Origin: Plasmodiophora brassicae | Taxonomy: Eukaryota | DNA length: 64,000 nt | Assembly (NCBI GenBank): GCA_036867785.1 | Contig: CP145414.1 | Span: 682,001-746,000, forward strand | Direction of reading: 5' to 3' | Shown: positions 25,101 to 49,641 of the stretch, one piece after another | How the letters are laid out: the number at the start of each line of letters is the position of its first letter | Numbering within the stretch: the first letter of the stretch is position 1 | Made by a program: the position numbers and the translations under genes | Notes under the pieces: model-generated | What the model was told of the DNA's origin: nothing | What the model saw: only the letters and a program-made list of their open reading frames with translations | Database searches by the model: none

Positions 25101-26673
25101 GTATCTCCTATAACGGCGAACACTGAAATGACAGAAGTATCTGCTGAGCATCGCAGTCGACTGACCTCGCGTTCCATCAGCGTCCTTGCAATGTTAAAAG
25201 GTTCCGCTGCTTCCTCAGGCGTTTGACTAGACGATTCGATAATTTGAACTAGAGACTGCACGACCATTTCAAGCGTCGTAGGCGTCAGTGATAGAGTCCC
25301 TGCTGATGCCACTGATTCCGGTTGGCCGAGCAACCATGAATAGAATCGCCTATTCACAGATGTTTCTCGACGAAGAATGACAGGAAGAGTAGCTTGAACT
25401 AAATGATATTTGAATGTCACACAGGGTTAGAGCAACCGGTGCGAGGAAACTAACCCAGGTATATAAGCTCGGTGCGGGTGAATAAAGATTCAACCAGCGG
25501 AAAGTGCGAAATCAACAAGTCAAACATGGCACGCTGAGCCAAAACGTCCTTGTCATGCAGAGTGGCAACAATCGCCTGGCAAGAAGACAATGAGGCTTCC
25601 ACAGTTGTTTGCCGAACAGAAACGTTACCTTAATCGCTATTGACCGATTGGGTGGCAAATATTGTTCCAGTTCAGGAGTGCCGATCGCAGGTATTGACGA
25701 ACAGATGTATCGCAGTGCAGAAGGTCGGCATGAAGGGCATTGGAGGAGGCAACGCCACAGCGCCAATGCGAAGTGCGGCGCGCTTGTATTCTGTCTTGTC
25801 TGGTCTGGGCAAGCCACGTTAATTACAATGGCAGGTGCTCTAAGTAGGACAAACCCCCTACCTAGGAGTTTCAGTGTTCGATTGTAGACATCACCGGAAC
25901 CTTCGTCAAGTCCTGATTTAAATAAGACGGGGCAGACATATCACAGCGCTGTGTCAGCCACAGGTTACCAGGTAGCAGCGCAAGAATGAAGCCTCCCAAA
26001 CAGGGCAACAATTTCTTGTCAAGTTTGACAAAATACTGCTCATAAATATCCAGAAGCTCGGGTTTGACCCGCGTAGATGCATAAGACAGCAATGGAAACA
26101 AGCCAGCCGAATAAAGCGAAAGGTCCTATGTCATAGCGGATGATCAAACCATCATTGACGTTCTTCGTTAGCGGCGCTGTTCGAACCTGCGCCAAACGTT
26201 GGCTTCCAATACGCTCAAGGATGGCTTTATACGTTTCGAGCGTCTTGAGATGGACTCCGCCAGGTAGGACAGGGTTCAGACACTGCGCAAGTCTACTCCC
26301 AAGTTTCAACACCAGTCTTGACAGCAGCAAGCGTTGCCGTCAAACCGTTTAGCAACTGTCAATGCCATCGGGACGAGCTCGACGTTGGAATACTTCGCCA
26401 GCACTTTGTTCACCCGTCCAAGGCATTTGATCAGATCCTTGACACACGCATCTCAGTGCCGTCACAACACGAAATCGGCGAGCTCACCGGCCACTCGCGC
26501 GCCTTCTCAAACGCCTATTCCCCCGGCAAGTCAGCTGCAAGCCCATCGTTTCCCGGCGCGACGCGGGAACGCACCTGCATTGAAACGAGCATGGCATCAT
26601 AGAACGGCTTCAGCTGAGGATGGTTCCGCTGCGCCACCTCAGCGGCAGCTCGCGATGCGGGCGGCTGCGACAT
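19194..26673 (-). CDS. DOP1: Dopey / DOP1 family Golgi-endosome trafficking protein; many introns
   Basis: Dopey N-terminal signature [75 protein letters not shown]-terminal [20 protein letters not shown]. Confidence 0.9.
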
Positions 26674-26869
26674 CACCGCGCCGTCGCCCTAACGTTGCAC
26701 GTGGTGCCGATGCAAACGCAGAGACGCCGACCAAAAAATGATGCTTCACCCTGAACCGGTGTTGAAGTGGCGATCTGAATCTGGCAAAGGCTATTCGAGA
26801 ATCTGTAGGTACCTCGACCTGCAAGCTGGAGAATGGTTGGGGGTGTATGCTAAGATTCTGTATACCATA

Positions 26870-27128
26870 TCAGTCAGCATCGAGGATGTCGTCTAGTCGT
26901 CGTCCGCGAGACTGTTGCGTTGTGTCGGTAACGGTGTGGCGATTGTCGAACGTGATGGTCGTCTCGGTCGAGTCGGCGGAGGAGGCCGTCATCATGACGG
27001 GCACGTTGGAAACTCGTACGGCGCCGAGGTACAAGCAACGGATAATGACCCGTAATAGTATGCAGCATATTGCGGCAAGGACCAGGATGCCAACGCCGAC
27101 GAAACTGTATAGGACCACGTCAGGCCAT
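26870..27128 (-). CDS. Small single-pass membrane protein
   Basis: MASWPDVVLYSFVGVGILVLAAICCILLRVIIRC: one TM helix followed by a Cys/Arg juxtamembrane segment. Confidence 0.5.
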
Positions 27129-27322
27129 GACGCCATTGTGACAACAGACACGAAGATATTTCCCTGGTGTCGCATCGCATTCGTATCTGCGGATATTCGA
27201 GTTCACGACGTGGTCCGGCTTGACGTGTCGAGGTTGCACCTGGACCTTATCAGCATGTTCCGAATCGGCACCAGCGGATCTAGGACAACCCGGCCAGAAC
27301 GGTAAAGATGTTGGTTGTGTAC

Positions 27323-28199
27323 TCAGATTGCTTCTCTGAGCTCGCTGAGCTCCTCTTCGGTGATCATGTCCGTCGTGTACCCGATATCGCCCATCATGCT
27401 CAGGACGCCGGACATGAAGCTCGTCGCGAACTCATGGACCACCTCAAGGCTGATGAGTTCTGGTGAAGTGTCGCGCGACTAGATTTCGGTTCAGATCAGC
27501 GTCACGACCCGCCTGACTGGAGCACAGACCTTCTCCTCTGTCTTCTTTCGTAGCTCTGCCATCAGTTCAGCCAACTTCGCTGCGTGTGGCACCATCAGCG
27601 TCAGCGTCGGTTTCAGGCGATCCCGGTGAACGTATTTCTGCTCTCCTGCATCCTCCTCTGTTATCTGCCTGTCGGCGCAAATCAAGTTCAGGACCCAGTC
27701 TCCGAACACCTTCAAACACGTCAGCGTATTCGACACCGGACCAGACATGCGAGGTGCCCGACCTGGCAGCCGAGGTCGGTGAACTGTGCCCACATTTGTA
27801 GCGTGAAGTAGGCACGTAAATGCGAGTCGAATTCCTGCGGACGGTAGACCTGGTGCCGATTCTTGCAGACCTTGATAAATTCCGTCGTGTTCTCGAGGCG
27901 GAACTCCCCTTCGGAAGACGTCAGTAGCGACCATCACTGAAGCGCGTCATGAAAACCTGTCATCAGTGGATCGAGACAGAACACTGTGCCCAGGTGAGCG
28001 ATCGTCATCCTCGTCGTGTGGGGCGGATTGGCCTGCAGAACCTCGCTAATGACCTGCCGGCGTCGACCATCAGCCACCGATATCGTCACGGCCATGATTG
28101 GCGACCCACTAAATGCTGCCTATTGGCGCTGCCTTTGACCCGATTGAACTCGTTCGTCATGTACTGCGTCATACTCGATGTCGACATGTTACTGCCCAT
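27323..28199 (-). CDS. Conserved hypothetical protein (possible degenerate EF-hand, MGxxxS myristoylation-type start); multi-exon
   Basis: Spliceable exons MGSNMS..EFNRVK / HLGTVFCLD / GEFRLENTTEFI / LRAYFTLQMW / FGDWVLNLI / FATSFMSGVLSMMGDIGY. Confidence 0.6.
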
Positions 28200-28774
28200 G
28201 GAGCCGAGCTGTCCCGATTAGCGTATGTGACGTGCAGACGCCAAGGTGAGCGTAATGGAGATATACGGTATACTGCGTTTGACAGGCAGGAGCCATGAAT
28301 TGTCAAACAGCTTTGCTGCAAAGTTATGGCTCAGTTGCAAGGACGCTGAGGCCAGTGATGCCTTTATATTGGGCCTTAGTATGCAGAATATAGCATGTAT
28401 TCAAGTGCTGGACGGAGGGTTGGCAGAAGGTTAGCGCGCCCTTGCTCGCAGTCGCATCAATGGTGGCCCATCAGCAGACCCGCTGATGGACCACCAGATG
28501 CTGATGGACCACCAATGACGGGAGCAAGGGCGCGCCAGCCGTCTGTAAACCCCCCGTCCAGCACTTGAATACATGCTTATTACTGTTGAGTTGTTCTCTG
28601 TCGTTGTGCCAGAGGATGGTGGCGACCGTGTCGAGGCCAGCTGATTCTTGGTGCTAGTTTTGGGGTCAGCAGTCAGCACAAGCGCCGGCACAACAATATA
28701 ACAATACAACTCGTGTTAATTGTGGCGACTTTATGAGATGTCCTATACAGCGACCATGACGCAATGATATCCTT

Positions 28775-31700
28775 CTATTCAACGTCAAGCAGGGACGCCA
28801 CATCGGGAATGCGCTGGAGAACCCGTCCAGGAATACACAGAAGCATCGTCCGCATGTGCTTGGCCTGTAGGTCCAGGCCGCGAACCATCGGTTCGTACAG
28901 GAACGCCATCAATAGCACCAGGATTGATAGGAAAACCAGGGTCACCGCCAGGTACGCCGACCTGAACACGCTGATCTGCCCGGCAATCTGCTGCTTGACA
29001 ATATCGAGGTCGTATGTCAGGGCGTATTGAAGGTACATCGTCTCGAGGGAGCGCATCGTTGCCAAACCACTATGAATAATATCGTGAGACAGGACCGGCT
29101 TCAGGCGCCATCCCCACCGACCTGAATCTCTGGCTCTTAACACGGGAAGTATTTGCAGGCAGTCGCTGGAACATTGCGATCTGGCTGCGAGCGTTACCCG
29201 CGAACTCCATTATAGCGACATGGAGGCCGTTGCCAAGGACAGAATGATCGAATACGGCACAATCGGCATCGTACGCGGCGTCAGGAACGCATCCGTTTGT
29301 GAACATGAGCGCCGGCTCTGGATCGGTGAATGCCGCACCGCTTAAGACGCCCGGAGTCCCCATTGCCGACGAGCCGTACGTGAGACCTGCCCGGAATCTG
29401 ATGACCAGATTGAAGCCCATGATATTCTTCAGGTGTACGTACCGTGTTCGATGGACATGAGTTCGTCGATACTCGACATGGCCTGGTCGAACGACCTGTT
29501 GACGCTGATGGCGCTAACGGGTGCTGCCCATTGGTTCAGGTCGCCTAGCGTCTGCCGAAGCTTCATGCGACGGTACTCGCCCCAGGTCGACGTCGACACG
29601 GCAGCCGACATCTCACCAAGTATAACTTGAACTCTGTGGCATGCGCTTCGTTCAGCACCGAGCTCTGGAATATGATGGCGGGAACGTCACCCAATGGTTG
29701 CGAATATAACGACGACGAACGCGACGTAGACGAACAGCGCGGCATTAAGCTGGAGCAGGACTTTCCATCCAAGGCGGCTCCTCTGCTTTCGGTTCGCCAG
29801 CAGAGTATGTTTGTTTCGCGAATAGCTATCTGATGCCAGGTCTTCAACGGAACGTGCGATGTCTTTGCCGGCGTCGATAGCTATGCACATACGCCCACAG
29901 TCACAAGCCGATGGGCAGGGGGACAGCAAATGCCAACGTACCGCTCTCTTCGTCATCGTCGCTGATGGCGAACAGTTCGTTGCGGGCAACTCGTAGGTCC
30001 TTGAGCCGCTTGACGCATCCCTTGCGAAGAAGTTCGACTTCGCGCGGGGGAACCTTTGTGAACACTGACAGCCTGTTCACCTGCGACGCAATCATCTCCG
30101 ATAGTGACGGGTGTACGAACACCACAATCAGCAGGACGATCAGAACGCCAGGGACAATCGCAACAATCGCGTTGGTAGTCTGAACCGAATTCAGACCCCT
30201 GATGACCTGTAGGATGTCTCCGGTAAGCAACCGGTAACGACATTGTAGCAATTGTCGGTTCCAAAGTCAAACCTCGTCTCTCCATGCGCTCGTCGACCGG
30301 TTCATCTGTGCGGTCAGGTTGCCCCGGTTCAGATATGCAATGAACATGGCGTCCTGGCTAATATTCGTCGATGTGTAAATATTTGTCAACGGTGTAGCGT
30401 ACAATTGGGCGCCCGCTTCCGCTAAGCGCGCCGTTGCATCGCTGAGCGTCACGTGCTCGTACTGGATTCCAGATCCAACAGTGACTGCTAGATTGACGAT
30501 AGGCGACGCCATCATTTGCGAGAAGGTCGCGCTGACCTGGCTCGGGTTCGCTTGGATCGCTTGCGCGAACGACACCAGTTGTTGTGATGCGTCGAGCAAT
30601 ATTGACCTGGCGATGGGTTCGTCATCGGCTGTGTCGACGCCAGCACTAATCACCATCAGCCATTGGGCCGCATACGCAATCGACATCGCCTGAGACCAAC
30701 CGCAATCAGATTCACAAATGGCGGCATGGGCAAGAAGGCTGACCTGGTAGGTTGTCGTGCTGGCGAAGACGAGCAAGTCGTTCGTGTTCTGGTAGTTGTT
30801 GAGGATGTTGTTCATGACGAGGAACGAAGTCAGAACGCCACAGAATGCCGTGACGATGACAAGGGCGAACAGGCCACGAAGCCATCGGGCACGGCCCGCC
30901 ATGGCCGACTTCCCCGACGGCCCGGACGCCATCTGACGAACCAGCTGGGTCCCGATCTCATCGATACTAGTCGTCCCACCAGGGCCGCCCCCATGCTGAT
31001 CGACCGTCGCCTTGTCTGACGACGCCTCGCTGGTGGACGCGCTCTCGTTATCAGTCGTCTGCTCCGCATCGATATTCGTCTCGTGCACATGACCTGCGTC
31101 GTCCTCCTGATCGACATCGCTGTCATCATCGGTGACGATTAGTGCATTCTCTGAGAAGAACGTCTGCAGGAGCCGCAATGCAATTGCGTCCTTGTGGCAC
31201 AGTTGACTGACGTCGGAGCGGATGACGTCCCGCTCAGCAGGGGTGACATCGTCTAGCAAGTCGCGTCGGACGTCGTCGATTTGCCGGTCGTCAACAACCG
31301 GCTTCGTCAATAGAGCCGCTGCGAGCCGCATCGTTAGAGTTTCGAGCCGCATTGTTCGCGGGGATACAATCTTGACGACGTCGTACAGGACCCCATCATG
31401 TGTGCGCTGCTCAGCAGAGCATTGGACATTATAGGAACCAGTTCCGTCAGCGACATATCGAGGAACCAGATCAGGTGAGCCGATGGTGGTTCCTGAGAAC
31501 TGGACCGTCATATGCAACATGTCGTGCAAGCCGGCAATGAACGGGACTGATTGTGGTGTCGGACGATCATCGAGTGTGAACAAAAGATGGCATCCATTGG
31601 TTCGTTCGACGACGGGGAAGGCCTCATCACGATCGATGCGGGCAATGAGGTAGTTGGTGTCGACCACCGGATCAGGCTCATCAGCACTGAATGTGGCCAT

Positions 31701-33929
31701 GAACTCCAGCATGTTCCCTTCGTCAGATACCTCGTGAAGCAGGATCCTACCCGGGACGATGCAACCGTTGCGGTGCTTAGCGAACACATGGCGTACCGTC
31801 TTCGTCAGACGCATGTTGCCCGAATCAAGGAACGCCTGGATCATGGAGTGATGCGTGGTAGCCCATGGCAAGGACACCAACGTGTCGACGTGTTTGCCAA
31901 TCAAGTCGTTCCGTTCGTATCCCAGAATGTTACATAACAAATTATTGACCTAGACAGGGAGACAAGAGTTATTTCGATACAGGACGTTTCTGTCCGGTCG
32001 TCTGTACCTTCGTGATGATGCCCAAGGAGGCGTAATCGACAGAGATGACGACCATGCCGTTACGAACGGACATATCGTTCTGAGCCTGCTCGACGTTGTT
32101 CGCGTTCTTGTTGGCGGCCGCGGCCTGCTCGTCGGCCTGGTTCAAAATCGTCTGGCCCTTGTCGCGCTCATTGAGGGCATCGATTAAGAATCCGGCGTAG
32201 ACTCGCAACGCAGCTGGGGTTCGTTGGGGCATCGTTACGATCTTATTGTAGTTCTGCTGCGCCAGATTGATGAACTTGGACACCTACAGCACGACGTCAA
32301 CGTAAGACCGTTTGCGGTTGCCTATGCGGTGCGCGCACCTGGGAAGTCATTTGATACAGGTCCTCGACTTTCGTCGACGATGATGATATGCTCTCCCAGA
32401 AGCTAACCTGCTCCTTGGCAGCTTTAGCGTCGTTGTCGATGGCGTCTTTAAGGTTCTGCTCATAGGCGATCGCAGTGATGATATCGGACCCACTGGACCC
32501 CGTGTTCTCCTCGCTTTTCTTCTTACGGCGACGATATATCAGGAACTGCTCATCAAGCTGAGGGGAACGTTCCGCTGCCTTCGCCAGTGATCGCATGCCG
32601 ATGTGTCCGTGCTTTAGGACGGTCAGGTAAAACTGGCCTCGGAACAGGAACATCATGGAACTTCCTGAGAATCTCTTGATACCTTCCACGTAAATCTCCT
32701 GTACCGTCAGAGTCATGTGAGCCCACCCACCATGGATTGGTGAGCTACAAACGTACTTCGGCCAACGCAGACACGCGCTCGAACTCATCCGCGAGCAGAA
32801 GGCGACGATCTTCTCGACCATTATCCTGCCATGCATCGGCGACGTTGCACATAAGGAAGTGGACCTTCAGCTGGACCTCGATCGGTGACGATAGACGGGA
32901 CACGGGCGATTCACTGATCCAGATCTTCCTGGTTGTCAATAGCAGGTTCGACACGATGATGACGATTGGTGTCCCGATGTAGAATGCGATGACGGGCGAC
33001 GCGTCGGCGGCGTCGTTGTTGAAAACGGCGACAGCGACGACAACAGCACCCCAACACTGCAGCCAGGCCAGCGTCGCTTTTACCTGGCAAACCGTGAACT
33101 TGTAGAATGGAAGGTACCACGTATAGGCGAACGCGCTGACTGATGTCAGAACCACCATCGACAGAATGACAAACATGTTGGACGATTGGTCGGGCAACAG
33201 TTGCCAGAAGGCGGTCAGCAAGAACCTCATCATCAACTGGACGGCTTCCGCCCGCGAGTGAGACCGACCCATGACGGACGGTTTGCAGGGATCGTCCTCG
33301 AAATACGTCAGCTGGACAATGAAACAGAACATAACGAACAGGATCGAGACGGGCAGGAGGAACGCCAACGATAGGTTATCGCGGCCGGTATAGCAGGAGA
33401 CCGACGGATCCAGGTCGCACTGGATATTCATGATGAAGACGTTGGCAATCGGGATGAACCCGATGGATGTAATCAGGACGGCGAACTGTCGAAGAATATG
33501 CAAGGGCAGCATGTACTTGAAATAGTTCTGGACGAACGAATAACCGACGTACACGACGCACGCCAGAACGATTGCGACTGTGGTCATCGCCGCTCCAAAC
33601 GTCAGACCACCTTTCACGGGCGCTGATGACCCCTGCCAGCCAGCAAGCGTTGAATACGGCAATGCTTCCAGTAACGGGGCGGCCGCCGCCTCATTCAACG
33701 GAAAATGTCGGTCCCGGTTGAACGCAAATCCAAGGACCTGGAAGAATTGCATAAACGACCCAGACAGGATGATGAACATGGATGACGATGTCTCCTTGGA
33801 CATGACGTAGATGACACCGAACAGAGCTTTGCGTAGCATTTCAATGATTTGCGCCAGGCGGTTCATCGTGGACCCCTCGTCGGCATCGGACCCGAAACCG
33901 ATCACGATGGGCGGTGTTGGACCACCCAT
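28775..33929 (-). CDS. TmcB/TmcC-like (tiny macrocysts) multi-pass membrane protein with PAS domain; multi-exon
   Basis: N-terminal 7-8 TM region (LPFYK motif), TPR-like linker (YAGFLIDALN), PAS domain ILGYERNDLIGKHVDTLVSLPWATTHHSMI..FAKHRNGCIVP, and C-terminal TM followed by MRTMLLCIP. Confidence 0.85.
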
Positions 33930-34091
33930 CGTGCAATTGCTGCCGCTGGTTGTAGCTGTTGTCCTTTGTCCCTGGACAGACGTACAGTCAGTCATGGAGT
34001 CATCAGTACGTCGTACAGTACACCACCCGTGGGTGTGCGTCAACCGTCAGGCAGTACCAGGGCAAGGAGAAACACCAGAGCAGCGAGGGCG

Positions 34092-34637
34092 ATGGAGTAT
34101 CACGAGGGATTGTTTGTTGAGGCTGAGGGTATGGCGCCACTCTCGGTCAAGCAGGAGACGGGCATCGTCGTCGGCGAAAGCGATGATGTGGAGACAATCG
34201 TATGCCGCGGCCAGGACACGTACGTACCGAAGATGAGGTCGTTCAAGGAGCGTCAGTACATTTGCAATGGCACACCGATCCACCGGGTCACATTCTGGCG
34301 CCATCGCAAGCACGGTTGCCCGAACATGCCTGGACCCCGCCTGCCTAGAAAGACGGCCATGGTCAGAGCGGATAGTATCGTCAAGGCGGACTTCGACGCC
34401 GATTGCGACATCGACGATGTCGACGACTTGACGAGGAAGGACGACGAGGCCGTCGAGGACCACGGCGACAGACACAACGTCTCCGCCGGCATGGCCGCCA
34501 TGTCGTCCAGCGACGAGGACGGCGAACTGGAATCCGAGGGCGAACCCGTCATCGATGGCGACGACGTCGACTATTTCCGCGACATACTCGGCGACATCGA
34601 CATTGACAAGGTACCCGACCCGATTCTCCTGCTCTGA
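34092..34637 (+). CDS. Hypothetical protein with acidic C-terminal half
   Basis: Intronless ORF with coding-like codon bias, divergent from the TmcB-like gene. Confidence 0.55.
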   Translation: MEYHEGLFVEAEGMAPLSVKQETGIVVGESDDVETIVCRGQDTYVPKMRSFKERQYICNGTPIHRVTFWRHRKHGCPNMPGPRLPRKTAMVRADSIVKADFDADCDIDDVDDLTRKDDEAVEDHGDRHNVSAGMAAMSSSDEDGELESEGEPVIDGDDVDYFRDILGDIDIDKVPDPILLL

Positions 34638-34816
34638 CGGAGACCTGCACACAACGTACAGCCAGCCATGCCACCATCAAAACCGTTAATAATGAAACAA
34701 ATAAGGAAGGCCAGATTAACTACCACGTCTGAGATGTGGGGCACGGTTGGAACAGTCAGTCGTAGAGGGAATTTATGCACCCTGGGTTGGTCAATAATAA
34801 CAAATTACACAAGAGG

Positions 34817-36660
34817 CTATTCGCGGGTAGACCCGCCGAGCGTCAGGTCTGCGCTATGGTTCGCGACGCCACCGACCGCGTACAGAACGTTGACGAGGGG
34901 ATCGTCATCGCCCGCTGTGCTGGAGGCAACGGTTTCTGAGTCTCCTTCACTATACGCCTGATACTCGATGATGGCAAATCGGTCCCAGTCACTACGACCG
35001 CGATTAGAGGGCAAAGCCAAATCGACAGCCGGCAATAATACCTCATTCCAGGTGTTGACCGGCATTGCTCGATGTGGTTCGGATCTCTTGATTCGTATTG
35101 GATGAACTTTTCGAGGTTCATCAGCATGTTGAAGAACACAGTGACGAGCTTGCAGCGTTTCAGATCCCGGCGACGGATTTGGCCGATGACTTCAGGGCTC
35201 ACGATGTCCATTCTGAAACGCGCCGGTTAGATTACATGCAATAACACTACCAAGGCTCAAATGACGGTATATACATTTGGCAAACGAAGTCGTCTAGGCT
35301 AATATGCTCTTGAGAGACTTGCTGAATTCGCAGAGATTGCGCCTTATAGAACGCTTCGATCTCGAAGACAGTAAGTAGGCCGTCAGCATCGATATCACAG
35401 ACACGGAACCAATAGTCGAGCGCGGTTTGAGTCGTTTTATCCTCTTCCGACAACAAGAACCCTATCACCAAGACCTTTCTTAGCTGAAACCAAATAACAC
35501 ATTGAACAGTCGATTACAAATAAAGTCATCGTATCCCATGAATCGTTCGGCACTGCCCGGCATGGTCTGAGGATACTTGAGTGCCACTTCGAAGATTCGG
35601 TTAATAACAATGGGGGTCAAGGCGTAATTCCCCTAAGAAAGCGAGTAAATCATGGATAATTGAGAAATGAAGCGCCGTGACTTACATATCTAGCCATATC
35701 ATCGCGACTCAACAGATAATCATGATCAGAATCCAACTCCCAAAACTTGCAGTAGATAACGTAGAAGTGTTCGTAGGAAAAGTAGGCAGTAACTTGGTTG
35801 ATATCGTCTGCAGTAGCATAATATTTAGACTAGGCGTTTGCAAACGCCGGTCTCCAGACATCCAAACCTTCGTGGTCGAGCAAATCAAGGGTCGCAAGGC
35901 AATCGCTATTTCGAAGCTCCAACAGCGTCATGCGCCCGTTGCCAGACCGGTTAACCGAGTAGAACAGTCTAGCAATGACCGTTTGGATATACTTGTCTTG
36001 AAATTGTTCGGACCCGGCTAGGAACCGTAACCCGGGATGCCTATGAACCACCTCTCGGACGACTGGCTCAAAACAGGACCGCTCCAGGTACGAATCACCA
36101 GATCTTGACGCCGCCTGCAGAACTCGAAACAACCGTGTAACTCGATCGCACGTTTGAAGTCGAGACTCCCAGAATCTATATGGGCGAGTAAGTCGCGACC
36201 ACGAGTTGGGGAGCGCGAGGGCAAACCGTTTGAAGTGTTGCATCGTAACAGTGGTATCGTCGTTCCTGACAGCGTTGAACAGCGCCAGGTTGCAATAGGA
36301 AGGGATTTGGGCGATATCGGTGGTTACTCTTTGAAAATCTTGCAATGATATTGCAGGATTGCAAGCCGGCCCAAGAAACAGAGTACTAATATTATTCTCC
36401 TCGCGATACTTCGTCGCTGGAGATAATGGTTGCCCCCCAGGGAAGTAGAACTGCTTGATCGACGTCGGACCAGGCGACGCCGGTAGGAGACCGACCAGAC
36501 CTCTTTGCCCTATGGACCGCGACAGCGGCGAATGTGGCGGACGCGGCGACGATGGCGCCTGGCTGCTTGTCAGCGCCCGGTCGACCATCTGATGCGTCTC
36601 CGGCAGCGACAGCCACTGCAGGAACGTATATCGCGTCGCGGCGCCCTGGACGTCGTGCAT
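34817..36660 (-). CDS. Protein phosphatase 2A regulatory subunit B'' (PR72/PPP2R3 family, EF-hand); multi-exon
   Basis: [94 protein letters not shown]. Confidence 0.93.
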
Positions 36661-37253
36661 GGCACGTTGAGGATGAGGTGATCGCCAGTGAAAACTCCGG
36701 ACCAACCCACACCCGAAACTGCATCCCAAAACATGCAAACGAATCGGGCAAACTCACCGTTCAACCCAAACGCGCTCCCGTCTATCGGGTCCTGTGCACG
36801 CGCAGAATGAGTGAATGACGGGTACAAGGTACCGAAAGCTATTGGTCGTTTTGGTCTATTGGTCGTTTTGGTGTAAAATGGAAATCAACGTCAGCTGGTA
36901 GCTTCGGTTCACGCCTGTTAAAATCCAAATCCGCCCCGACTGTTGAGCTCTTACAGTTGTAGTCCCCGCAAAGTCAGAAGTGACGTGGCTGCTGTTTCGA
37001 ATCGAAGCCTCGAACCGGCGCGTTTCCTCAGCATGCCCGTTGGCAGCAATAGGGCGCACTCTGTCACGAGAACGCAGTTGACCACAGTTTGTGCATTCAC
37101 CAATATTCATATTTGTATGAGTGGCTGGTCGACCACATAACTCCATGGCATCTAACACGGTGTGGCCGTGAGTGAGCGCCGCCGCCGGGTCGTGCGGTTA
37201 GGGGTCGGCGCAATTCGGTTTCGAACCAGAAACCTCCACGGTTTTGGTTCTCT

Positions 37254-37882
37254 TATCCAACGTTGTCTGTGGCTGTCCGGGCTAACGATAAGATGATCTT
37301 CCACTGCAGGGAATTCCTCGAAACTTGTGAGCGCGGCAACGTGATGCGCGACGCGATACCGAAGATTCTCGAGTATCACCGGAAGTACGATCCGCATTTG
37401 AATTCCGACGCTGCTCTGATAGCCATGTTCCTCGATCCTCGTAATGCGAAGACTGAAGGGTCTTTACGAAACCCTAACGATGGAGTGTCAGTGATAAGAA
37501 TAAGTACCGAAACCAATAGGCTACGCACGCTTCGGCACTATAGCCGCCATTATTCCACAAATCGTCACCTGTTTCAGCTGCAGCAGCCGGTTCTTCTTCA
37601 ACATCAGACAGAGCGCTGTAGGTCAGCAGGCCCAGTTTGACAATCAGAGTTTTTGTCTTGGTGAGTAAAGGCCCTTCACTCTTCGCATTACGAGGATCGA
37701 GGAACATGGTTATCACTGCAGCGTCGGAATTCAAATGCGGATCATACTTCCGGTGATATATACTCGAGGATCCTCGGTATCGCATCGCGCATCACGTTGC
37801 CGCGCTCACAAGTTTCGAGGAATTCCCTGCAGTGGGAGGTCATCTTATCGTTAGCCCGGACAGCCACAGACAACGTTGGATA
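37254..37882. repeat. Long inverted repeat (arms 37254-37467 and 37665-37882) of transposase sequence
   Basis: The arms are reverse complements with scattered substitutions and one 4-bp indel; both encode SVAVRANDKM..HCREFLETCERGNVMRDAIP..YHRKYDPHLNSDAA..MFLDPRNAK. Confidence 0.95.
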
Positions 37883-38991
37883 CGAGTCTCCACCGAGAAA
37901 AGTGGTACGCCTCGCTGGCAATTCTAGAAACGAAGAAACATGGTGCAAGTGCAGCCAACCATCAACGGTCAGACGATGATCGGCAAGATCCGCTTTGCAC
38001 TGTGCATTCTTTGCAATCATGTCGAGAGCAGGCTGCAGCACAACGCACCGCTTGATCATGATATGCGCCAAGTTAAAGCGCGTACAGCAATCTGTGCAAG
38101 GTGGCTCAAATTCCTTATCGAGCAAGCCTTTGCACACAGATCGGAATATGACCTTACATATGCGTATGGCCGACAGAAGGCCACGAAGTGCGTCACAAGC
38201 TGCATTGTGTGCACAGCGCATCGCAGGAGGTTTCTCAGTTCAACGATACGATGACCAGACGATGCCATCGTTGACGAGACATACTCAGCAGCAGCGATGG
38301 CATCTGCGCTGTTATCGTTCACCAACGCCAAAATCTTATCGTCGATTTGGAAATCCGACAGCCGTTCACAGATCGCAGTGCCAATCCGTTTACCTGCACC
38401 TTTCCCAGGATAGATGTGAGCAAAATCAAGTAGCCAAGACAGAAGAAGACCATGTAAGGTGTCTATCCAGTGGCATGTGACAGGATACAATCCCTGCAGT
38501 TTGGGATTCGACTAGCCATCGAACGTGGCGCTGACCTTCGAAGGCACGGTGGCAAAACATTCAACCAACATGGAACGAGGGATGAAATACAGTTTGAGAA
38601 TCCCTCGTTTGACAGTGCGAGCGGGTTTCGGTTCGAAACCAAAGCATAGCGTGCGAGAGTATTCGCGGAAAGAATCGACTTCCGGGAGTGAATGAACGTC
38701 TCCACGACGGACGATATACTTGACGACAGCAGCATTGTTTTTCGCCACGCGATGCAACGGCAACGTTGTCGAAGTGATAAGGATCTGACGGGAAGTTGTT
38801 GTTACACGGCCCTCGACGATACCTGCTTCTGCTGCAGATGTTTCAAAATCGTACCAGTCGACGTCGACATAGACCAAGTCAGGCCACAATGCTGACATTG
38901 AGTGGACGGCGCTTCCGCGATTGAACGACGGCGCCGAATTCGACAACTGCAGCGATGACGGTGGCGCTTTGGATTGCTTCGGGGCTGCCAC
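37474..38991 (-). pseudogene. hAT transposase pseudogene
   Basis: Motifs VSATFDG*S (W codon now TAG at 38512-38514), VTCHWID, LVNDNSA, RCAVHTMQLV, TRFN..IMIKR, YPTLS and MFLDPR are spread over several frames. C-terminal dimerisation domain not seen. Confidence 0.85.
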
Positions 38992-39362
38992 GAGCAGCGG
39001 AAGAATCGGTCAGGGCGGCCTCAGGAGCGAACGCTTGGGGGGAATAAATTCAACACCAATCTCAGAAACCGTGGTCGTTGATGTTTGCTCCATCTAGGCG
39101 ATGACCAGGCATGACAGACACGAGAACAGAACCTCATACGCTCCCAAACTGCTTCGAACGCGATACAGAGAGCGTGGCGCTAGGGCCACTGTGCGGACAC
39201 TGCGCACGCGGATCGGGATTCCTGCAATACTAGCGCATCCGTCATATATACAGCCGCCCAGTGCAAACCACGGTTCAAATCGGTTCCGGCGGAACCGGTT
39301 TGGGCGGACCTCGAACTGAACTAAACCAAACCAAATTGATTGGGTCCACCTGAACCGCTCAG

Positions 39363-39542
39363 TGATTCAAGCAGTTCGAAGCGCTTAGGAAAGTGAAAGT
39401 CCCCAGTGTATCTAACGTGGGGGAAGCCGACGTCCCCATGACGTCGCACACACAGTGGCACGGTCGCCACTGTGCACCAGTTGCGTCACGTCGTCGTGAC
39501 TCATGGGTCGGCCACTGTCGCTAGCCTTCCCATTATGAATCA
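39363..39542 (-). repeat. 3' LTR (180 bp)
   Basis: TGATTCA...TGAATCA (7-bp terminal inverted repeat); base-for-base identical to 44309-44488 on manual comparison. Confidence 0.97.
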
Positions 39543-39548
39543 GCCGCC

Positions 39549-42500
39549 CTAAGGCGCCAGCGACAGGTCCACCCGACCCATCCCGGCCGCCCTCTTCATG
39601 ACCTCCACAGGTTCACGAGTGGTCGGCTTGGTGAGCGCGTCCGCCGGATTGTTCTTTGACGCCACGCGCTCGAACCGGAGCAGTCCCTCCTGGACGCACT
39701 CTCGCACATAGTGCCATTTCACCCGAATGTGCTTGTTCCGGTCCGTGACCCCGAGCGTCTTCACCATCTGCTCGGCAGCCGTGTTGTCCTCCAGCACAAT
39801 CGACGGGTCCGTCAGAGTGAACCCGATGTCGGTGAGGAGCATCCGGACCCACACTACTTCACGCGCCAGCTCGCTGGCCGCCACGTACTCCGCGTGCGCT
39901 GAGGAGGTCGCCACCAGGCTTTGCTGCTTCGATCGCCAGCTCACAGCTGCGTCCATCAGCGTGACGATGAATCCCGTGACCGACTTGGATGTGTCCGGGT
40001 CCATCGCAAAGTCCGAGTCGACCGCCGCCCGGGGCTCCGACTCCTTCACGTTGTCTTTGTTCAGTGCCATCGGGTCGAATTCAGTCGCCGGTGTCTTGCT
40101 CTTCGCGTAGATGATGCCGACATCCGTGTTGTTCTGGACATATCGCAGCACGTGGAGCATCGCCTCGAAATGCTCCCGACCCGGGTTGTTCAGGTGACGC
40201 GACAGCTGCGACACCGCGTGCGTGATTGTCGGCATCGTGCCGATCGACAGATGCGCCAGGCAACCAACGCCCTCGCGGTACCGCTCATGCTGGTGCGGAA
40301 CACCGTCGGTTCGCCGGGGCATAATCTGCCCGACAGGCAGAGCCGTGGCCGGCGCGCGCAAGCGGCGCCCGGCGGCTGCCTCGTCGATGTCGGTCTGGAA
40401 CCGCGCGACCACCTCCTTGGCGTACTGCTGTTGGTCGATCGTGATGCGCGTTGCCTCCTGCTTGATGCGCATCCCCAGGATCCATCTCGCGATGCCGAGG
40501 TCCTTCATCTTGAACTTCTTGCCCAACGCTGCCTTGACGTACTCGATGACGTCGGGATCCGTGCCAAACATCATAAAGTCGTCCACGAACACCCCGAGGA
40601 TCGTGATCTGTCTGCGGCCGTCCTTCGTCGTGAACATAACGAACAGGCACGGGTCGCCGGTCACCCTTGTGAAGCCGATTTCGAACAGAACTGATACGAG
40701 CTTATCGTACCAGAGCTTCGGCGCCTCGACCAGGCCGTACAGCGCCTTCAGGAGCTTCATCACCTTGCCGCGTCCTCCGACCACGAAGTTCTTCGGCTGT
40801 TCACAGTAGATCGGGTACGGCAGGTCTCCATTCAGGAACGCCGTCTTAACGTCCAGCTGGTGGATGACCACGCCCAGCATGGCCGCCAGCGCCACCATGA
40901 TGCGCAACGTCGCATACCGGAGCGTCGGCGAGTACGTCTCCTTCTGGCCCTTGAACTTGTCGCAGCATCCCTTGACGCAGAAGCGGGCCTTGTGGCGCGT
41001 GATCTCCCCGTCCTCGTCGCGCTTCGTCGTGTGCACGAACATTGTTGGCAGCACTTGAGCGTCGGTCGGGCGGTCCACGATCTCATACGTGCCCGCTTCC
41101 TTCAGCGACTGCATCTCCTCGACCTGCGCCGCCAGGTACTTGTCCCGGTCAGGCCCGTTCTCGGCCTCGTACTCAGTGAGGAACGCGTTGCCAGCGTCCT
41201 CCTCCTCCAGGTAGCTGTCCTCGTTCTCGAGCGCCTCGTCCTGGTTGACCTGGTCCTCGTTGTCCGGGTCGTCGTTGGCCTCGTTGTCGTGGTCGACAGC
41301 ATCTGCTGCTGCCGCCTGGTCGACGTTGTCGGCAGCCCCTGCTGCCGCCCTGGCGCTGGCCGCCCTCTGGCGCCGCGCTTCGCCGTCGTAGTCCACGTCG
41401 GCAAACCGAGCGGGCGCTCCTCTGATGCGCGTCGACCGCCTCGGTTCAGGGACGCCTTGAGCAGCAGGTCCTCGATCCCCGCCGCCCTGAGCTGCTTGCT
41501 CATCGCGTCCGTCATGCCGGTCTTCACCGGCACCTGCGAGTTCCCTGGCACGGTCGTCCCCGCCGCCGCCTCGCTGAATGGCGCGGCCATCCTGGCCGCC
41601 GCCCTGTTGTTGACCGACGCGACCTTCTCGATCGCCGTCGTCTTGTCGTGCGACGCGATCGTCCCGACCGCCGTCGTCTTCTTGCCCATGACGATCGTCT
41701 TGACCGCCATCGCCGCCTCCTTGCAGCTGGGCTTGCGCCGTCTCTTGGCGCTTGCGGGTCTCCTCTCCGCGGGAGCCGCTGTCATCCTTGAACGGGAATT
41801 CGTTGGGGAAGAAGACCACGTCCGAAGACTCGATCATCTTGCGGCTGTGCCACAGCAGCAGCCGGTACGCCTTCTTGTCGATGCACACCCCCATGTGGAC
41901 CGCGCGCTCGGCCCTGGCGTCCAGCTTGCACTTCTTTTGCCGCCGGATCCTGACCCACGCCTCGCAACCGAATGGCATCGCCCTCGACAGGTCTGCTTGT
42001 TCCCCCGTCAGTTCCTCGATTGGCGTCGTCCGGTGGCCGTGTCGTTGGAGCGGCACGCGGTTGGCTACCCACGTCTGATGCCGCCCGTTCTCGGTCCAGT
42101 ACTTGCGCGGGACGCCTGACTGGACACGAGCTGCGCGCATCATCTTGACAATCTTGCCACCGAACGTCTCCGCGAGACCGTTCTGGTGCGGGCGGTCCGT
42201 GTCGCTGAACTCCTGTGCGATTCCCCGCTCGCGCAGCAGCTTCGCCAGGCGCGTCGAGGTGAACTCGCCGCCCTGGTCGGCGCGGAACGTGTCGACGCGT
42301 GTGCCGCCCATGACCTCGAGCCGGGTCAGCACGTCCATGACGACTTGCTCCTGGTCACCCTTATTTGCCAGGTTGACCGTGGCACCGACACCAGTCGCGT
42401 GGTCAACGTAGCACGCCATGTACGTCTTTCCGTCATGCGACCTGGTGTCGAACGTCTGCAGGTCCGCCCCGACGATCTGCAGCTTCGAGAGCACCGTCCG

Positions 42501-42823
42501 TGTCCGTCTCCGCGGGATCGCCGTTCGGTTGAGGTTGGCCTCGATGCACACCTTGCACCTGGGCACCTCGTCGCTCGCCAGGTCGGCCTCGTCGATGTTG
42601 AGACCGGTGATTGCCCCGTTCTTGACTGCCTTTCTGATCGTGATCGTGGACAGGTGGCCGCACCTCGCGTGCGCCTCCGCCAATGATATCGTTCTGTCGC
42701 GCTTTACGTCCGCGGGCTTGCGCGTTTCCTTCTTCTCGGCCGGCTCCTCCTTGCTCGGGCTCTTGTTTTCTGGCTGGTTTGGATGATCGTGATCGGGGGC
42801 GGCCAGCGCCACCCCCGCTACTC
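39549..42823 (-). CDS. pol: Copia Pol ORF2: integrase - reverse transcriptase - RNase H (no own ATG; -1 frame relative to ORF1)
   Basis: HARCGH..CKVC (HHCC), VGAD..FRADQGGEF..QNGLAE (DDE), KLDARA, HKARFCVKG, HQLDVKTAFLNG, LLKALYGL, GVFVDD, DSDFA..AEYVAA..EDN..ADALTK. Confidence 0.95.
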
Positions 42824-42830
42824 GAAATCC
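42794..42830 (-). promoter_or_regulatory. Putative -1 programmed ribosomal frameshift signal
   Basis: G_GAU_UUC in the ORF1 frame (42830-42824), 6-nt spacer GAGUAG, then hairpin CGGGGGUGGC-GCUG-GCCGCCCCCG (42817-42794). A -1 slip gives ...QDF-RVAGVALAAPD in the ORF2 frame. Confidence 0.85.
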
Positions 42831-44287
42831 TGGACCTTGTGCAGATCCAGGTAGTACAGGCCCTTGCGGACCGTACTGGTCACGATCGTCCTTCCGGCCC
42901 CGTCCAGGAGCCGGGCTGAGCGCGTCTGCTCATGGTGCTCCGCGCCCGTCTTGCCGTCCTTGCCGAGCTGCAGGAGTGCCGAACGCACCGCGAAGATGTT
43001 CGCGGATGCATCTGGCGCGTACGCGACGTTTGTCAGCGTGATCGACTTGCCGTTAGCCAGCTTGAGGCGGACGTTGCCCCTGGCATGGACCTTGATTCGC
43101 TGCGGGCCGATGCCGCCGATCGTCGGCCGGTCCTTGTCGGCGATGAAGTCCAGCTCCTCGAAGTGCGCCTTGTGGGTGGACACGTGGCCGCACGTCGCCG
43201 CGTTGTCGACGATGAAGTCGCGGATGCCCTTCCGCGGCGCGTCCTCGACGCCCGCCAGGCTCGTCAGGAGCGCGATCGACGCCGAACCGCCTTCCTCTTT
43301 GCCCCCCTTCCGCTTGCCGTTCCTGGCCTTGCCGCGCTCGGCGTTGCCGGTCTTCTTGCGGCTACGGCAGTCGGCCGCCCTGTGTCCAGCCTTTCCACAG
43401 TTGAAGCACTTGCCGGAGAACCCCGTCGTCGTCATGGCCGCCGAGGAGCCGCTGTCGTCGTCGCCGCGCTCTATCGCTCCCCGCTTGTACTGAGCGAGCA
43501 CTTCTGCGCGGACCTTGCTTTGCGTCAGCTCTCCGATGGGACCGCGCAGCATCGCGTTGACTAAGTCCTTGTACTCGGTGTATGGCAGCGAGATAAGGAC
43601 CTTCGTCGCCATGTCCGACTCAGTCTTCGTCCGATTCGGATCCGCCCGGGCCAGGTTGATGCCCAGGTCGCGCATCGCCGTCAGGTGCGCCTTGGTCTCC
43701 GTGAGGTCGGCGCCCGCCTTAAGCTTTGTTGTTGACAGAAGAATGTCGAACATCGCCAGGTCCGTGCCCGTTTGGCCGGAATACTCCGTCTGGATGGCGC
43801 TCCACGCCAGGTCCGGACGGTCGTCGGGTATGTCGAGTATCAAGGGAAGTTCGTCTTCATGCACGTTCTTCTTGATAGCGTACATTGCGTGGAGCCTCTC
43901 TTGCTCCGACGCCGGCTCTTCGTTGTGCCCGCGCGTCGCGGGCTCCACGGCCTTTTGCAGGCCCGACTTCTTGAGCATCGTCGTCATCGACGACGCCCAG
44001 ACCAGGTAATTGTCCTTGCCCTTCAGCTGGACGGAGATCTTGATGCCGGACTCCTTCAGGCCCGTCAGCCTTTCCTTCTGCGCAGCTTCCAGCCGCGCCA
44101 GACGATCCTTGAGCGCCGCGTTCTCGCGCTGGCCGGTCCCGCTCCCGGCCGCCGCTGCTTGCAGACGTTCAACCTCCGCCTCCAGCCGATCCTGCTGCCG
44201 CTGGGCCTCGGACAGCGCAGCGCTTATCTGGGCGATCACGGCCTCTGCTTGGGCCAGGTCGGCTGGGATGCTTGGGATCGTCGCCAT
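42818..44287 (-). CDS. gag: Copia ORF1: Gag (coiled coil, capsid, CCHC knuckle) fused to aspartic protease
   Basis: LKGKDNYLVW, CFNCGKAGHRAADC, FIVDNAATCGHV, LTNVAYAPDASANIFAV, GLYYLD, then TAG at 42818-42820. Confidence 0.93.
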   Translation of the reverse strand: MATIPSIPADLAQAEAVIAQISAALSEAQRQQDRLEAEVERLQAAAAGSGTGQRENAALKDRLARLEAAQKERLTGLKESGIKISVQLKGKDNYLVWASSMTTMLKKSGLQKAVEPATRGHNEEPASEQERLHAMYAIKKNVHEDELPLILDIPDDRPDLAWSAIQTEYSGQTGTDLAMFDILLSTTKLKAGADLTETKAHLTAMRDLGINLARADPNRTKTESDMATKVLISLPYTEYKDLVNAMLRGPIGELTQSKVRAEVLAQYKRGAIERGDDDSGSSAAMTTTGFSGKCFNCGKAGHRAADCRSRKKTGNAERGKARNGKRKGGKEEGGSASIALLTSLAGVEDAPRKGIRDFIVDNAATCGHVSTHKAHFEELDFIADKDRPTIGGIGPQRIKVHARGNVRLKLANGKSITLTNVAYAPDASANIFAVRSALLQLGKDGKTGAEHHEQTRSARLLDGAGRTIVTSTVRKGLYYLDLHKVQDFE

Positions 44288-44290
44288 CAG

Positions 44291-44308
44291 AGAGTGGGAC
44301 TCTTAATC
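44291..44308 (-). promoter_or_regulatory. Primer-binding site complementary to the anticodon arm of tRNA-Lys(CUU)
   Basis: The plus strand reads AGAG-TGGGACTCTTAATC directly abutting the 5' LTR. Eukaryotic tRNA-Lys(CUU) reads AGAGCATGGGACTCTTAATC at about nt 21-40. No TGG-type PBS is present. Confidence 0.8.
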
Positions 44309-44488
44309 TGATTCAAGCAGTTCGAAGCGCTTAGGAAAGTGAAAGTCCCCAGTGTATCTAACGTGGGGGAAGCCGACGTCCCCATGACGTCGCACACACA
44401 GTGGCACGGTCGCCACTGTGCACCAGTTGCGTCACGTCGTCGTGACTCATGGGTCGGCCACTGTCGCTAGCCTTCCCATTATGAATCA
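44309..44488 (-). repeat. 5' LTR (180 bp)
   Basis: Identical to 39363-39542. Confidence 0.97.
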
Positions 44489-44727
44489 AGTTTCGGTTTG
44501 GTTCACGGTTTCTGGTTCGAAACCAAACCGCGCTGTCCCCCACAGTGTCTGCGGCAGCCAGGTTAGGGCACTGGCACTGCCCGCGCGCTCTAAAATACGG
44601 CAGGCGGATTGCGGAGTGCCGTGCGCAATGCCGTGGCGGCAGGCGGTCGTCGGTCCGACCATTCGCGTACTGCAGTCCGTCCGTCAGTTGCAAGTCGTTC
44701 GTCGTCAGGTCCCAGTCATCGCCCAAC

Positions 44728-45039
44728 ATGCCCGCCGAGAAGAAGACAGGCAAGGTCAAGTTCTTCAACAACACCAAGGGCTTCGGCTTCATCACGCCTG
44801 ACGACGGCACCGAGGACCTCTTCGTGCACCAGACGTCCGTCCACGCCAAGGGCTACCGCTCGCTCGCCGACGGCGAGACCGTCGAGTTCGACGTCGAGGT
44901 CGGCGACGATGGCCGCACCAAGGCCATGAACGTGACGGGACCCGACGGCTCATATGTCCAAGGCCAGCCCCGCGAGCAGCGCCAGGAGCGCTCGTACGGC
45001 GGCGGCTACGGCCAGCAGAGCGGCGGCGACCGCTGGTAA
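44728..45039 (+). CDS. Cold-shock domain protein with short Gly/Arg-rich tail
   Basis: GKVKFFNNTKGFGFITPDDG (RNP1), DLFVHQTSV (RNP2), GYRSLADGETVEF, KAMNVTGPDG. Confidence 0.95.
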   Translation: MPAEKKTGKVKFFNNTKGFGFITPDDGTEDLFVHQTSVHAKGYRSLADGETVEFDVEVGDDGRTKAMNVTGPDGSYVQGQPREQRQERSYGGGYGQQSGGDRW

Positions 45040-47535: not shown

Positions 47536-49641
47536 ATGACGACGAATGGCAGGGCCCGGTTAGCAGTACTGCTAATGGCGTTCAGCCTTGGTGTTCGCAT
47601 GGGTCGCGGGCAATGTGAAAACGCGCCGTACCCGCTGGACGGCCCATATGCAGGCTTATGTGGCGCACAGAACGGCGATCATGGCTGCTTTGCCGACAAC
47701 CCTTGCTGCAGTGCATACGGATGGTAGGTAACATGATGTGATGAACCAACGGTGCCCGTATGCCATGGACGTCAATTTAGGATATGGAATCTGCAGGTGC
47801 GGGTCGGGAGACGCCTGGTGTAGTACCAATCAATGTCAGTCGCCAATGCCCAGTCCGACTCCGCAACCAACCCCGTCTCCAACACCAAGACCAGCACCAC
47901 AACCTACACCACGCCCAACTCCTAGTCCGACACCATCGCCGACCCCTGCGCCTACACCACGGCCGACCCCTGCACCTACTCCACAGCCGACCCCTGCACC
48001 TACACCACAACCGACGCCTGCACCTACGCCCCAGCCGACACCTGCACCTACTCCCCAGCCGACACCTGCTCCTACACCCAAGCCGACACCTGCACCTACA
48101 CCCCAACCGACTCCTGCGCCTACGCCTGCGCCTACGCCTGCGCCTACGCCTGCGCCTACGCCTGCGCCTACGCCTGCGCCTACGCCTGCGCCTACACCTG
48201 CACCTACGCCTGCGCCTACGCCTGCGCCTACACCTGCGCCTACACCTGCGCCTACGCCTGCGCCTACACCTGCGCCTACACCTGCGCCAACGCCCCAGCC
48301 TACACCTGCGCCAACGCCCCAGCCTACACCTGCGCCAACGCCCCAGCCTACACCTGCACCTACGCCGCGCCCACCACCTGCGCCTACGCCTGCGTCAACA
48401 CCCCAGCCGATACCTACGCCTACGCCCCAGCTGACCCCTGCACCTACACCACAACCGACCCCTGCCCCAACACCGCCCCCGACACCTGCCCCTACGCCAA
48501 GTCCAACGCTGAGTCCGACTCCAAGTCCAACGCCAAGCCCAACACCTAACTCAACTCCGAGTCCAACACCAAGCCCGACGCCTGAGCCAACTCCCAGCCC
48601 AACACCGAACCCAGCACCAAGCCCGACACCAAGTACTTCGGGCCCAACGCCACGTCCGACGCCAAGCTCCACGCCGAGTCCAACACCGGCTCCGACTCCA
48701 AGCCCAGCACAGAATCGTACACCTGCCCCAACGCCAACGCCAGCACCAAGTCCTGGAGCAGCGCCAGGGCCATCGTCTGGATCTAGGACTGTCGCAGCAC
48801 GGTCCAGTCCAAACGTTTCGGTTCCATCGCGTAATACGGGCCGTGTTCAGACGCCCAACGTGACTCGCAGGTCGTCTTCTTTTCGGTTTCGAGGTCGGTA
48901 CCACTGCTTTCTGCTATTGAGAGCCTTTCGTTGCCCCAGTAACTCGTACTTACAGGACCCGGTCGCACCACATACGTCACGCCAGGGCAGATCATCGTCC
49001 CCGATACGCGTCATACCACTGTGGTTTTTCGTATCGTGCCTCACCTATCCGGCCCGGGGTGCTAAAACGTACTCGCAGGTGTATCGACACGTCTTCCCAA
49101 CTGTCGTGAATCCCGTCACCCGGCAAGCACCGACAATGACAGCAACACACGTACGGAACCGTTTCCCGTTGCTCTCGAGTGGGTATTGTTGACAGGAGAG
49201 CAGGGCCCTGCGGATTCGGCTGCCAGCAACAGGTCGCTGGCGTCGCAGCTCGCATTGACTCCTGTGCTGGCTATCGGGGCAATCCTGCTGATCGTCATAT
49301 TGGCTATCGCTGTCGTCATGTCGACGGATGTCTGCTTCCGTCGGGCACTGGCGACCGCGACAACGCAGAGCGCCGTTTTGGCGTCCAGCAAAGCGTCTGC
49401 GTTCGGGTCGCCCAGTAACCAGGAACACTTATGGGACGGGGAAGCGAACCATGTCGAGGCGAACGTTGCTCGTCCAGTCCAATCATATTCTTACTTTGGA
49501 AGTCCGCATGCCGAGCCACCTGCAAGTCCACGCCAGTCGCGCGCCCCGAAATCGTTCCACCTGCCCTACAAGTTAACGGACGGGACGGATGACACCTGGG
49601 ATCCCAACTACCCAGATTCAACCGCTCCGACAACAGGCTAG
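47536..49641 (+). CDS. Type I membrane protein: signal peptide, hevein/CBM18 chitin-binding domain, long Pro-Thr stalk, TM, cytoplasmic tail (paralogue 1)
   Basis: [30 protein letters not shown]; about 300 aa of [32 protein letters not shown]. Confidence 0.88.
47848..48760 (+). repeat. Coding minisatellite (12/24-bp units; [12 protein letters not shown]), near-perfect CCTGCGCCTACG run at about 48113-48290
   Basis: Directly visible tandem repeats. Confidence 0.95.

Follow-up and report, generated by a model that had tools for sequence, protein, structure and literature searches.

Which RNA primes reverse transcription of the Ty1/copia element that lies in this 64-kb stretch of DNA (hereafter the window)? 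The initial annotation, which was based on the letters of the stretch, had proposed a half-molecule of tRNA-Lys(CUU) in place of the initiator tRNA-Met (tRNA-iMet). We have followed up this reading by computational analysis of the element itself, of the site beside its 5' LTR, of tRNA genes that could supply a partner for this site, and of other conceivable ways of priming.

An intact Ty1/copia element

The element measures 5,126 bp and occupies positions 39363-44488 on the minus strand. Its parts are as follows.

44309..44488, minus strand: 5' LTR of 180 nt, with TG...CA ends and a 7-nt terminal inverted repeat (TGATTCA/TGAATCA); its boundary was set where the two LTR copies diverge
39363..39542, minus strand: 3' LTR of 180 nt, 100% identical to the 5' LTR
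42818..44287, minus strand: gag-protease (gag-PR) ORF of 489 aa, with the Pfam domains Retrotran_gag_2, zf-CCHC and Pol_BBD; its first ATG lies 22 nt past the LTR
39549..42929, minus strand: pol ORF of 1126 codons from stop to stop, with integrase (rve), an SH3-like domain (SH3_retrovirus), RVT_2 reverse transcriptase and an RNase H region
39543..39552, minus strand: candidate polypurine tract with a weak purine bias, in element sense TTAGGGCGGC; it adjoins the 3' LTR, overlaps the stop codon of pol and is assigned by position only

Both the LTRs and the gene order (gag, zf-CCHC, protease barrel, integrase, RVT_2, with integrase ahead of reverse transcriptase) are those of a Ty1/copia element. 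Since the LTRs are identical and the ORFs uninterrupted, the element looks young: it is an intact Ty1/copia retrotransposon with the appearance of a recent insertion. Neither a second copy nor a solo LTR of it was found in the 64-kb window.

The target-site duplication of Ty1/copia elements is short, usually 5 bp. This copy is not flanked by one, as the adjoining pentamers read AAACT and CTGAG in element sense (39358-39362, 44489-44493). It is possible that the duplication was lost by recombination between two copies, or that the assembly was joined through the repeat. LTR remnants, considered as another cause of the absent duplication, were not found in the flanks.

A cold-shock-domain gene that is transcribed away from the element has its start codon at 44728-44730, and the 5' LTR ends 240 bp before it; the insertion thus sits in the upstream region of that gene. 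At the protein level, Gag residues 1-75 (44060-44287, minus strand) form an N-terminal extension of about 75 aa that is coiled-coil-like and gives a weak match to TBCA_PH. The extension is not common to the relatives, whose matches begin at query residue 76-90 and at their own residue 5-22.

Complementarity between the LTR-proximal site and tRNA-Lys(CUU)

Between the 5' LTR and the gag ATG lie two adjoining segments.

44295..44308, minus strand: core of the primer binding site (PBS), 14 nt, in element sense GATTAAGAGTCCCA, complementary to nt 27-40 of tRNA-Lys(CUU), at offset 0 from the LTR
44288..44294, minus strand: possible PBS extension CUCUCUG, with two mismatches, then four pairs with tRNA nt 21-24 and, in addition, a possible G-U; weak when taken alone

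Read in element sense (44308 down to 44285), the end of the LTR (...TGAATCA) is followed directly by GATTAAGAGTCCCACTCTCTG and then by the ATG. Two features of this junction had been described correctly. Beside the LTR a TGG-type PBS is lacking: the first 20 nt contain no TGG, and the earliest one, at +22, overlaps the ATG. The gag ATG does follow the PBS almost directly, with 7 nt between the 14-nt core and the first ATG of the gag-PR ORF; no other in-frame ATG is present ahead of the part of Gag that is common to the relatives.

Pairing with tRNA-Lys(CUU) stops exactly at the LTR boundary, where the last LTR base, an A, would face C41. That the complementarity ends at this boundary would put the 3' end of the primer at tRNA nt 40. 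As a plus-strand sequence, the 14-mer (TGGGACTCTTAATC) has exactly one occurrence in the 64-kb window (44295-44308); with up to two mismatches allowed, there are two matches in the window versus 0.28 expected. By our own arithmetic, the chance of a 14-nt match is 4^-14, or about 4e-9, for one tRNA site, and it stays below 1e-4 if about 50 tRNA species, 60 end positions and six offsets are allowed for. The 14-nt complementarity is real and far beyond chance.

The pairing beyond the core had been described as a match of AGAG to the D-arm after a 2-nt bulge. Four further pairs (tRNA nt 21-24) are indeed present. The bulge is not: the alignment is ungapped, with two mismatched positions at nt 25-26. 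Four extra pairs would arise by chance in about 1 of 256 cases (own arithmetic) and are weak evidence on their own.

tRNA genes that carry the matching arm

For comparison we used tRNA genes detected by ARAGORN on fetched viral and metagenome loci; these are not the genes of the host itself. Scanning viral contigs for the 14-mer gave at least 114 loci. Among the matches listed, the 14-mer fell inside a tRNA gene in five, all of them tRNA-Lys(ctt), and outside tRNA genes in 109. In all five of the tRNA-borne matches listed it starts at nt 26-28, and the anticodon occupies nt 34-36. In the anticodon arm, these phage tRNA-Lys(CTT) genes (viral loci L006, L009, L019, L057 and L077) agree with the eukaryote-type genes over all 14 nt.

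The pattern used for the metagenome scan combined the 14-mer with the D-stem, the remaining anticodon stem and the T-loop, and yielded 98 loci. ARAGORN found 220 tRNA genes on them, of which 102 are tRNA-Lys(ctt), and the 14-mer is contained in 100 of these 102 (41 distinct sequences). It spans nt 27-40 of the 73-nt form, again with the anticodon at nt 34-36. Some tRNA-Lys(ctt) genes have a G at nt 26, and with it 15 nt match exactly. The form found most often, in 25 genes, and the variants that differ from it in the acceptor stem are presumably of the type of animal cytoplasmic tRNA-Lys(CUU). The loci bearing tRNA-Lys(ctt) range from 30 to 64% G+C, and several such genes may stand in tandem, for example four copies in 3.9 kb on one locus; arrays of this kind are compatible with eukaryotic DNA. 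In these metagenome and viral genes, 14 of 14 nt of the site are complementary to the 5' arm of the anticodon stem, the CUU loop and nt 39-40 of tRNA-Lys(CUU), exactly as had been claimed from the site alone.

To compare tRNA types, the 50 nt past the LTR were aligned with 274 tRNA genes (195 distinct), both with and without CCA. tRNA-Lys(ctt) paired over 14-15 nt at offset 0, a match that is present by construction because the set had been fetched through the 14-mer itself; the usable control consists of the other 172 genes, a biased sample. The next best were tRNA-Ser(gct) with CCA (9 nt) and tRNA-Arg(tcg) with CCA (8 nt), both at offset 22 on TGGCGACGA, and all remaining tRNA types reached at most 8 nt. 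In the first 30 nt past the LTR, no non-Lys tRNA type of the 274-gene set pairs over more than 9 nt. Within this set from the fetched loci, the comparison supports tRNA-Lys(CUU) as the only tRNA type that fits the site. When the 5' half of the tRNA was compared with the first 400 nt of the element, nothing beyond the 14-mer emerged as further complementarity.

ARAGORN and Rfam found no tRNA gene in the 64-kb window. Among lysine codons, the ratio AAG:AAA is 43:7 for the host ORFs and 94:3 for the element. With AAG so strongly preferred, a Lys tRNA with a CUU anticodon should be needed and abundant in the host. Eukaryote groups (e.g. plants and budding yeast) differ in the 5' arm of this tRNA's anticodon stem, so that the host need not have the matching arm. 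Because the match is perfect and the arm occurs widely, we infer that the host tRNA has the TGGGA arm.

Alternative primers

The site could be an internal-tRNA PBS and yet have a partner in the host other than tRNA-Lys(CUU). A diverged isodecoder, or a tRNA-like or SINE RNA with the same arm, might serve, or the element might be a recent arrival whose PBS still fits the tRNA of its donor. That the closest protein relatives are just 44-54% identical, and all of them metagenome proteins, would suit such a history, as would the copy's want of a target-site duplication. However, the identity of the LTRs and the intactness of the ORFs indicate that the element was active in the host genome recently, the G+C content (0.64) and the AAG bias of the element match those of host genes, and eukaryote-type tRNA-Lys(ctt) genes widely have the arm. 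We regard another partner as improbable.

Still less probable is that the 14-nt Lys match arose by chance and that the TGG-type site TGGCGACGA, located 22 nt downstream over the gag ATG, serves as PBS and pairs with the 3' CCA of a whole tRNA resembling Ser(GCU) or Arg(UCG). The 9 nt of tRNA-Ser(gct) and the 8 nt of tRNA-Arg(tcg) at offset 22, obtained with CCA added, are what speaks for it. Three of these nine nt are, however, the universal CCA, and with 195 distinct 3' ends another six matching nt are to be expected in about 5% of cases (own arithmetic); for the exact 14-nt match at offset 0, the chance probability is lower by orders of magnitude. The PBSs surveyed in the accessible part of Neumann 2019 begin 0-5 nt from the LTR. 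A tRNA primer might also be replaced altogether, either by self-priming as in Tf1 or by a hairpin-type site as in fungal GalEa, and systems of this kind do exist in Copia/Gypsy elements according to the accessible text of Donnart et al. 2017 (PMC5445492) and Neumann 2019. The present site is not palindromic, though, and the longest complement of its 21 nt anywhere in the LTR is 6 nt, which leaves this reading with next to no probability. The initial annotation had itself named a better 3'-CCA match of another tRNA and a self-priming structure among the results that would tell against it. The best CCA match is only 9 nt at +22 versus 14 nt for Lys, and the complement in the LTR, at no more than 6 nt, gives self-priming no support.

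Proposed mode of priming

We consider it likely that this site is a hemivirus-type half-tRNA primer binding site for tRNA-Lys(CUU), on the minus strand of a young Ty1/copia element. What adjoins the 5' LTR is complementary, over 14 of 14 nt, to an internal segment of a tRNA and not to its CCA end. Judged by sequence criteria only, the element belongs to the functional class of half-tRNA-primed Copia elements (Hemivirus in the functional sense of the ICTV). The reading put forward at the outset is supported as regards an anticodon-arm site of the copia/Ty5 type with Lys(CUU) as its sole fit; the novelty of Lys instead of iMet finds no support (see below).

Reverse transcription would start from a 5' fragment of tRNA-Lys(CUU) whose 3' end, near nt 40, falls within the 3' strand of the anticodon stem and is not the CCA end. 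Nt 27-40 of the fragment would pair with the 14 nt next to U5, and its new 3'-OH would be extended into the LTR (U5). This scheme supposes that the tRNA-Lys(CUU) of the host carries the matching arm and that it is cleaved by some nuclease. In ANN-decoding tRNAs, A37 is usually modified and would lie inside the primer duplex, where the modification would have to be tolerated; the same question arises for copia. Should primer supply hinge on a regulated cut of the main tRNA-Lys, transposition would be coupled to the production of tRNA halves, which is speculation.

According to the accessible part of Neumann 2019, half-molecule primers are generated in the region of the 3' arm of the anticodon stem, and the half-primer reading is supported because the proposed primer end falls in just this region. 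It also agrees with the texts available for the model elements, which describe copia as primed from a 'half-tRNA' and Ty5 from an internally cleaved initiator tRNA (PMC5371799), and name the 5' half of tRNA-iMet as the primer of copia (PMC10275265).

Relation to known half-tRNA primers

The closest counterpart is FunCo1. Its PBS, as given in the accessible text of Donnart et al. 2017 (PMC5445492), is ATTAAGAGTCT, which lies directly past the 5' LTR and is attributed to an internal region of tRNA-Lys. The corresponding letters of our element (ATTAAGAGTCC) agree with it at 10 of 11 positions and involve the same tRNA in the same register; the last letter, located in the stem, differs (C here, T in FunCo1). 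Such a difference is to be expected if each PBS tracks the tRNA of its own host. Priming by Lys in place of iMet, the novelty that the initial annotation had implied, was thus already in print for FunCo1 (PMC5445492). The same text reports FunCo1 from 270 fungal species, nearly all of them Pezizomycotina, and from none of 245 Basidiomycota genomes. The present host lies outside this range: it encodes an SPEF2/CPC1 domain of the flagellar central pair and for this reason is not a filamentous ascomycete. We do not claim membership of FunCo1 for the element, which the host range sets apart.

Drosophila copia and yeast Ty5 (ICTV genus Hemivirus) are like the element in that they use a tRNA fragment as primer and have a PBS that pairs with the anticodon stem-loop, as far as described in the available parts of PMC5371799, PMC10275265 and PMC8515867. 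The primer of copia and Ty5 is initiator tRNA-Met, whereas that of the element, judged by sequence complementarity, would be tRNA-Lys(CUU). The copia primer was reportedly shown biochemically, by Kikuchi in 1986, and the Ty5 primer is said to have been shown genetically, by Ke in 1999.

Anticodon-arm sites of other kinds have been described in several groups. Plant Copia elements use half tRNA-Met in Osser, Bryco and Gymco-II and half tRNA-Ile in Bianca (Neumann 2019); Copia and Helenus elements of Puccinia use the anticodon loops of Tyr, Ile, Asp and iMet (PMC10886601); in Candida albicans, internal tRNA-Arg(UCU) serves gamma/whio and iMet serves zeta (PMC4139406). In the parts of these sources that are accessible, the plant, Puccinia and Candida types thus involve other tRNA species, and none is Lys. 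As far as these texts go, the tRNA whose anticodon arm serves has changed repeatedly among Copia lineages.

Beyond FunCo1, the literature searched held no further report of half-tRNA-Lys; more cases may stand in the element-by-element PBS tables that supplement Donnart 2017 and Neumann 2019. No retrotransposon paper was among the matches listed for the 10-letter PBS motif in the literature. The novelty lies in the setting, since the family is divergent and its host is flagellated and outside Pezizomycotina; the priming mode itself is known. The element adds, outside the filamentous ascomycetes, a Copia case whose PBS pairs with the anticodon arm of tRNA-Lys. It supports the view that half-tRNA priming is flexible in its choice of tRNA and follows the host tRNA sequence, and it opens no new mechanism.

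A frame break between protease and integrase

The pol frame is -1 relative to gag-PR. The two ORFs overlap at 42818-42929, pol being open from 42929, and the following feature lies at the end of gag-PR.

42794..42832, minus strand: putative -1 recoding site, CAG GAU UUC GAG UAG (Q D F E stop), followed by a 10-bp G+C-rich hairpin

In the window, the C-terminus of gag-PR reads ...YYLDLHKVQDFE. Among the 18 best-scoring gag-PR relatives (P0127-P0144, 30-54% identical), 15 end at the same point, with L/V-D-L/V-x-x-x-Q-D-F, 0-1 residue and a stop; one of the remaining three has QDF four residues before its end, and two have different C-termini. Since the QDF-stop end is kept in 15 of 18 relatives, the frame break is not a private defect of this copy. 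No gag or protease Pfam domains were found in the 13 nearest pol relatives.

In the minimum free energy fold, the 10-bp hairpin begins directly after the UAG and 6 nt after the UUC; the 102-nt fold is not exceptional overall (z = -1.26). A canonical slippery heptamer (XXXYYYZ) was sought at the recoding site and is not present. Slippage of tRNA-Phe by -1, from UUC to UUU, would let translation continue as ...QDF-RVAGVA... into the integrase frame. From these sequences, the break looks like a conserved programmed -1 shift between protease and integrase that does without the canonical heptamer. A split at this point seems unusual for Copia; it differs from the usual one between gag and pol. The site of the frame break is more unusual than the PBS, as the family seems to part protease from integrase by a conserved recoding site.

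Relatives of the encoded proteins

The nearest relatives of pol are 13 metagenome proteins (P0003-P0015) with 44-54% identity; named Copia proteins of plants, algae and fungi are 28-37% identical to it. At E<=0.001, an exhaustive protein search with gag-PR returned 876 proteins, of which 19, with the window's own among them, reach E<=1e-30. Related elements were not found on viral contigs by protein search with pol, on genome contigs and viral contigs by an 11-sequence pol alignment, or on any of the 212 fetched loci by tblastn of gag-PR and pol.

A wider and rather doubtful proposal is that the family represents a deep, as yet unnamed Copia lineage of a flagellated, plant-associated eukaryote. 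Such a lineage would have gained its tRNA-Lys(CUU) 5'-half primer independently of FunCo1 and would be marked, in addition, by the conserved -1 shift at Q-D-F-stop, with its hairpin, between gag-protease and integrase-RT-RNase H.

The host window

The genes of the window are eukaryotic and encode EamA, an Na/H exchanger, PP2A-B'' EF-hand, a cold-shock domain, an M14 peptidase, WD40 and the SPEF2/CPC1 flagellar domain. Protein searches returned no match for the SPEF2-domain ORF and, for a PP2A-B'' exon, just two hits at 38% besides proteins of the window itself. DNA next to the element occurs in sequencing runs labelled with one coded organism and in others labelled plant metagenome; no RNA run was listed for the locus. 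The G+C content of the window is 49-68%, and that of the element is 0.64. A dip to 0.49-0.55 is seen at 20001-40000, against 0.58-0.68 elsewhere in the window. A tandem-repeat array with a unit of 12 nt (and 24 nt) extends over 47807-48442, inside a 486-codon open frame (47732-49189) without a Pfam match.
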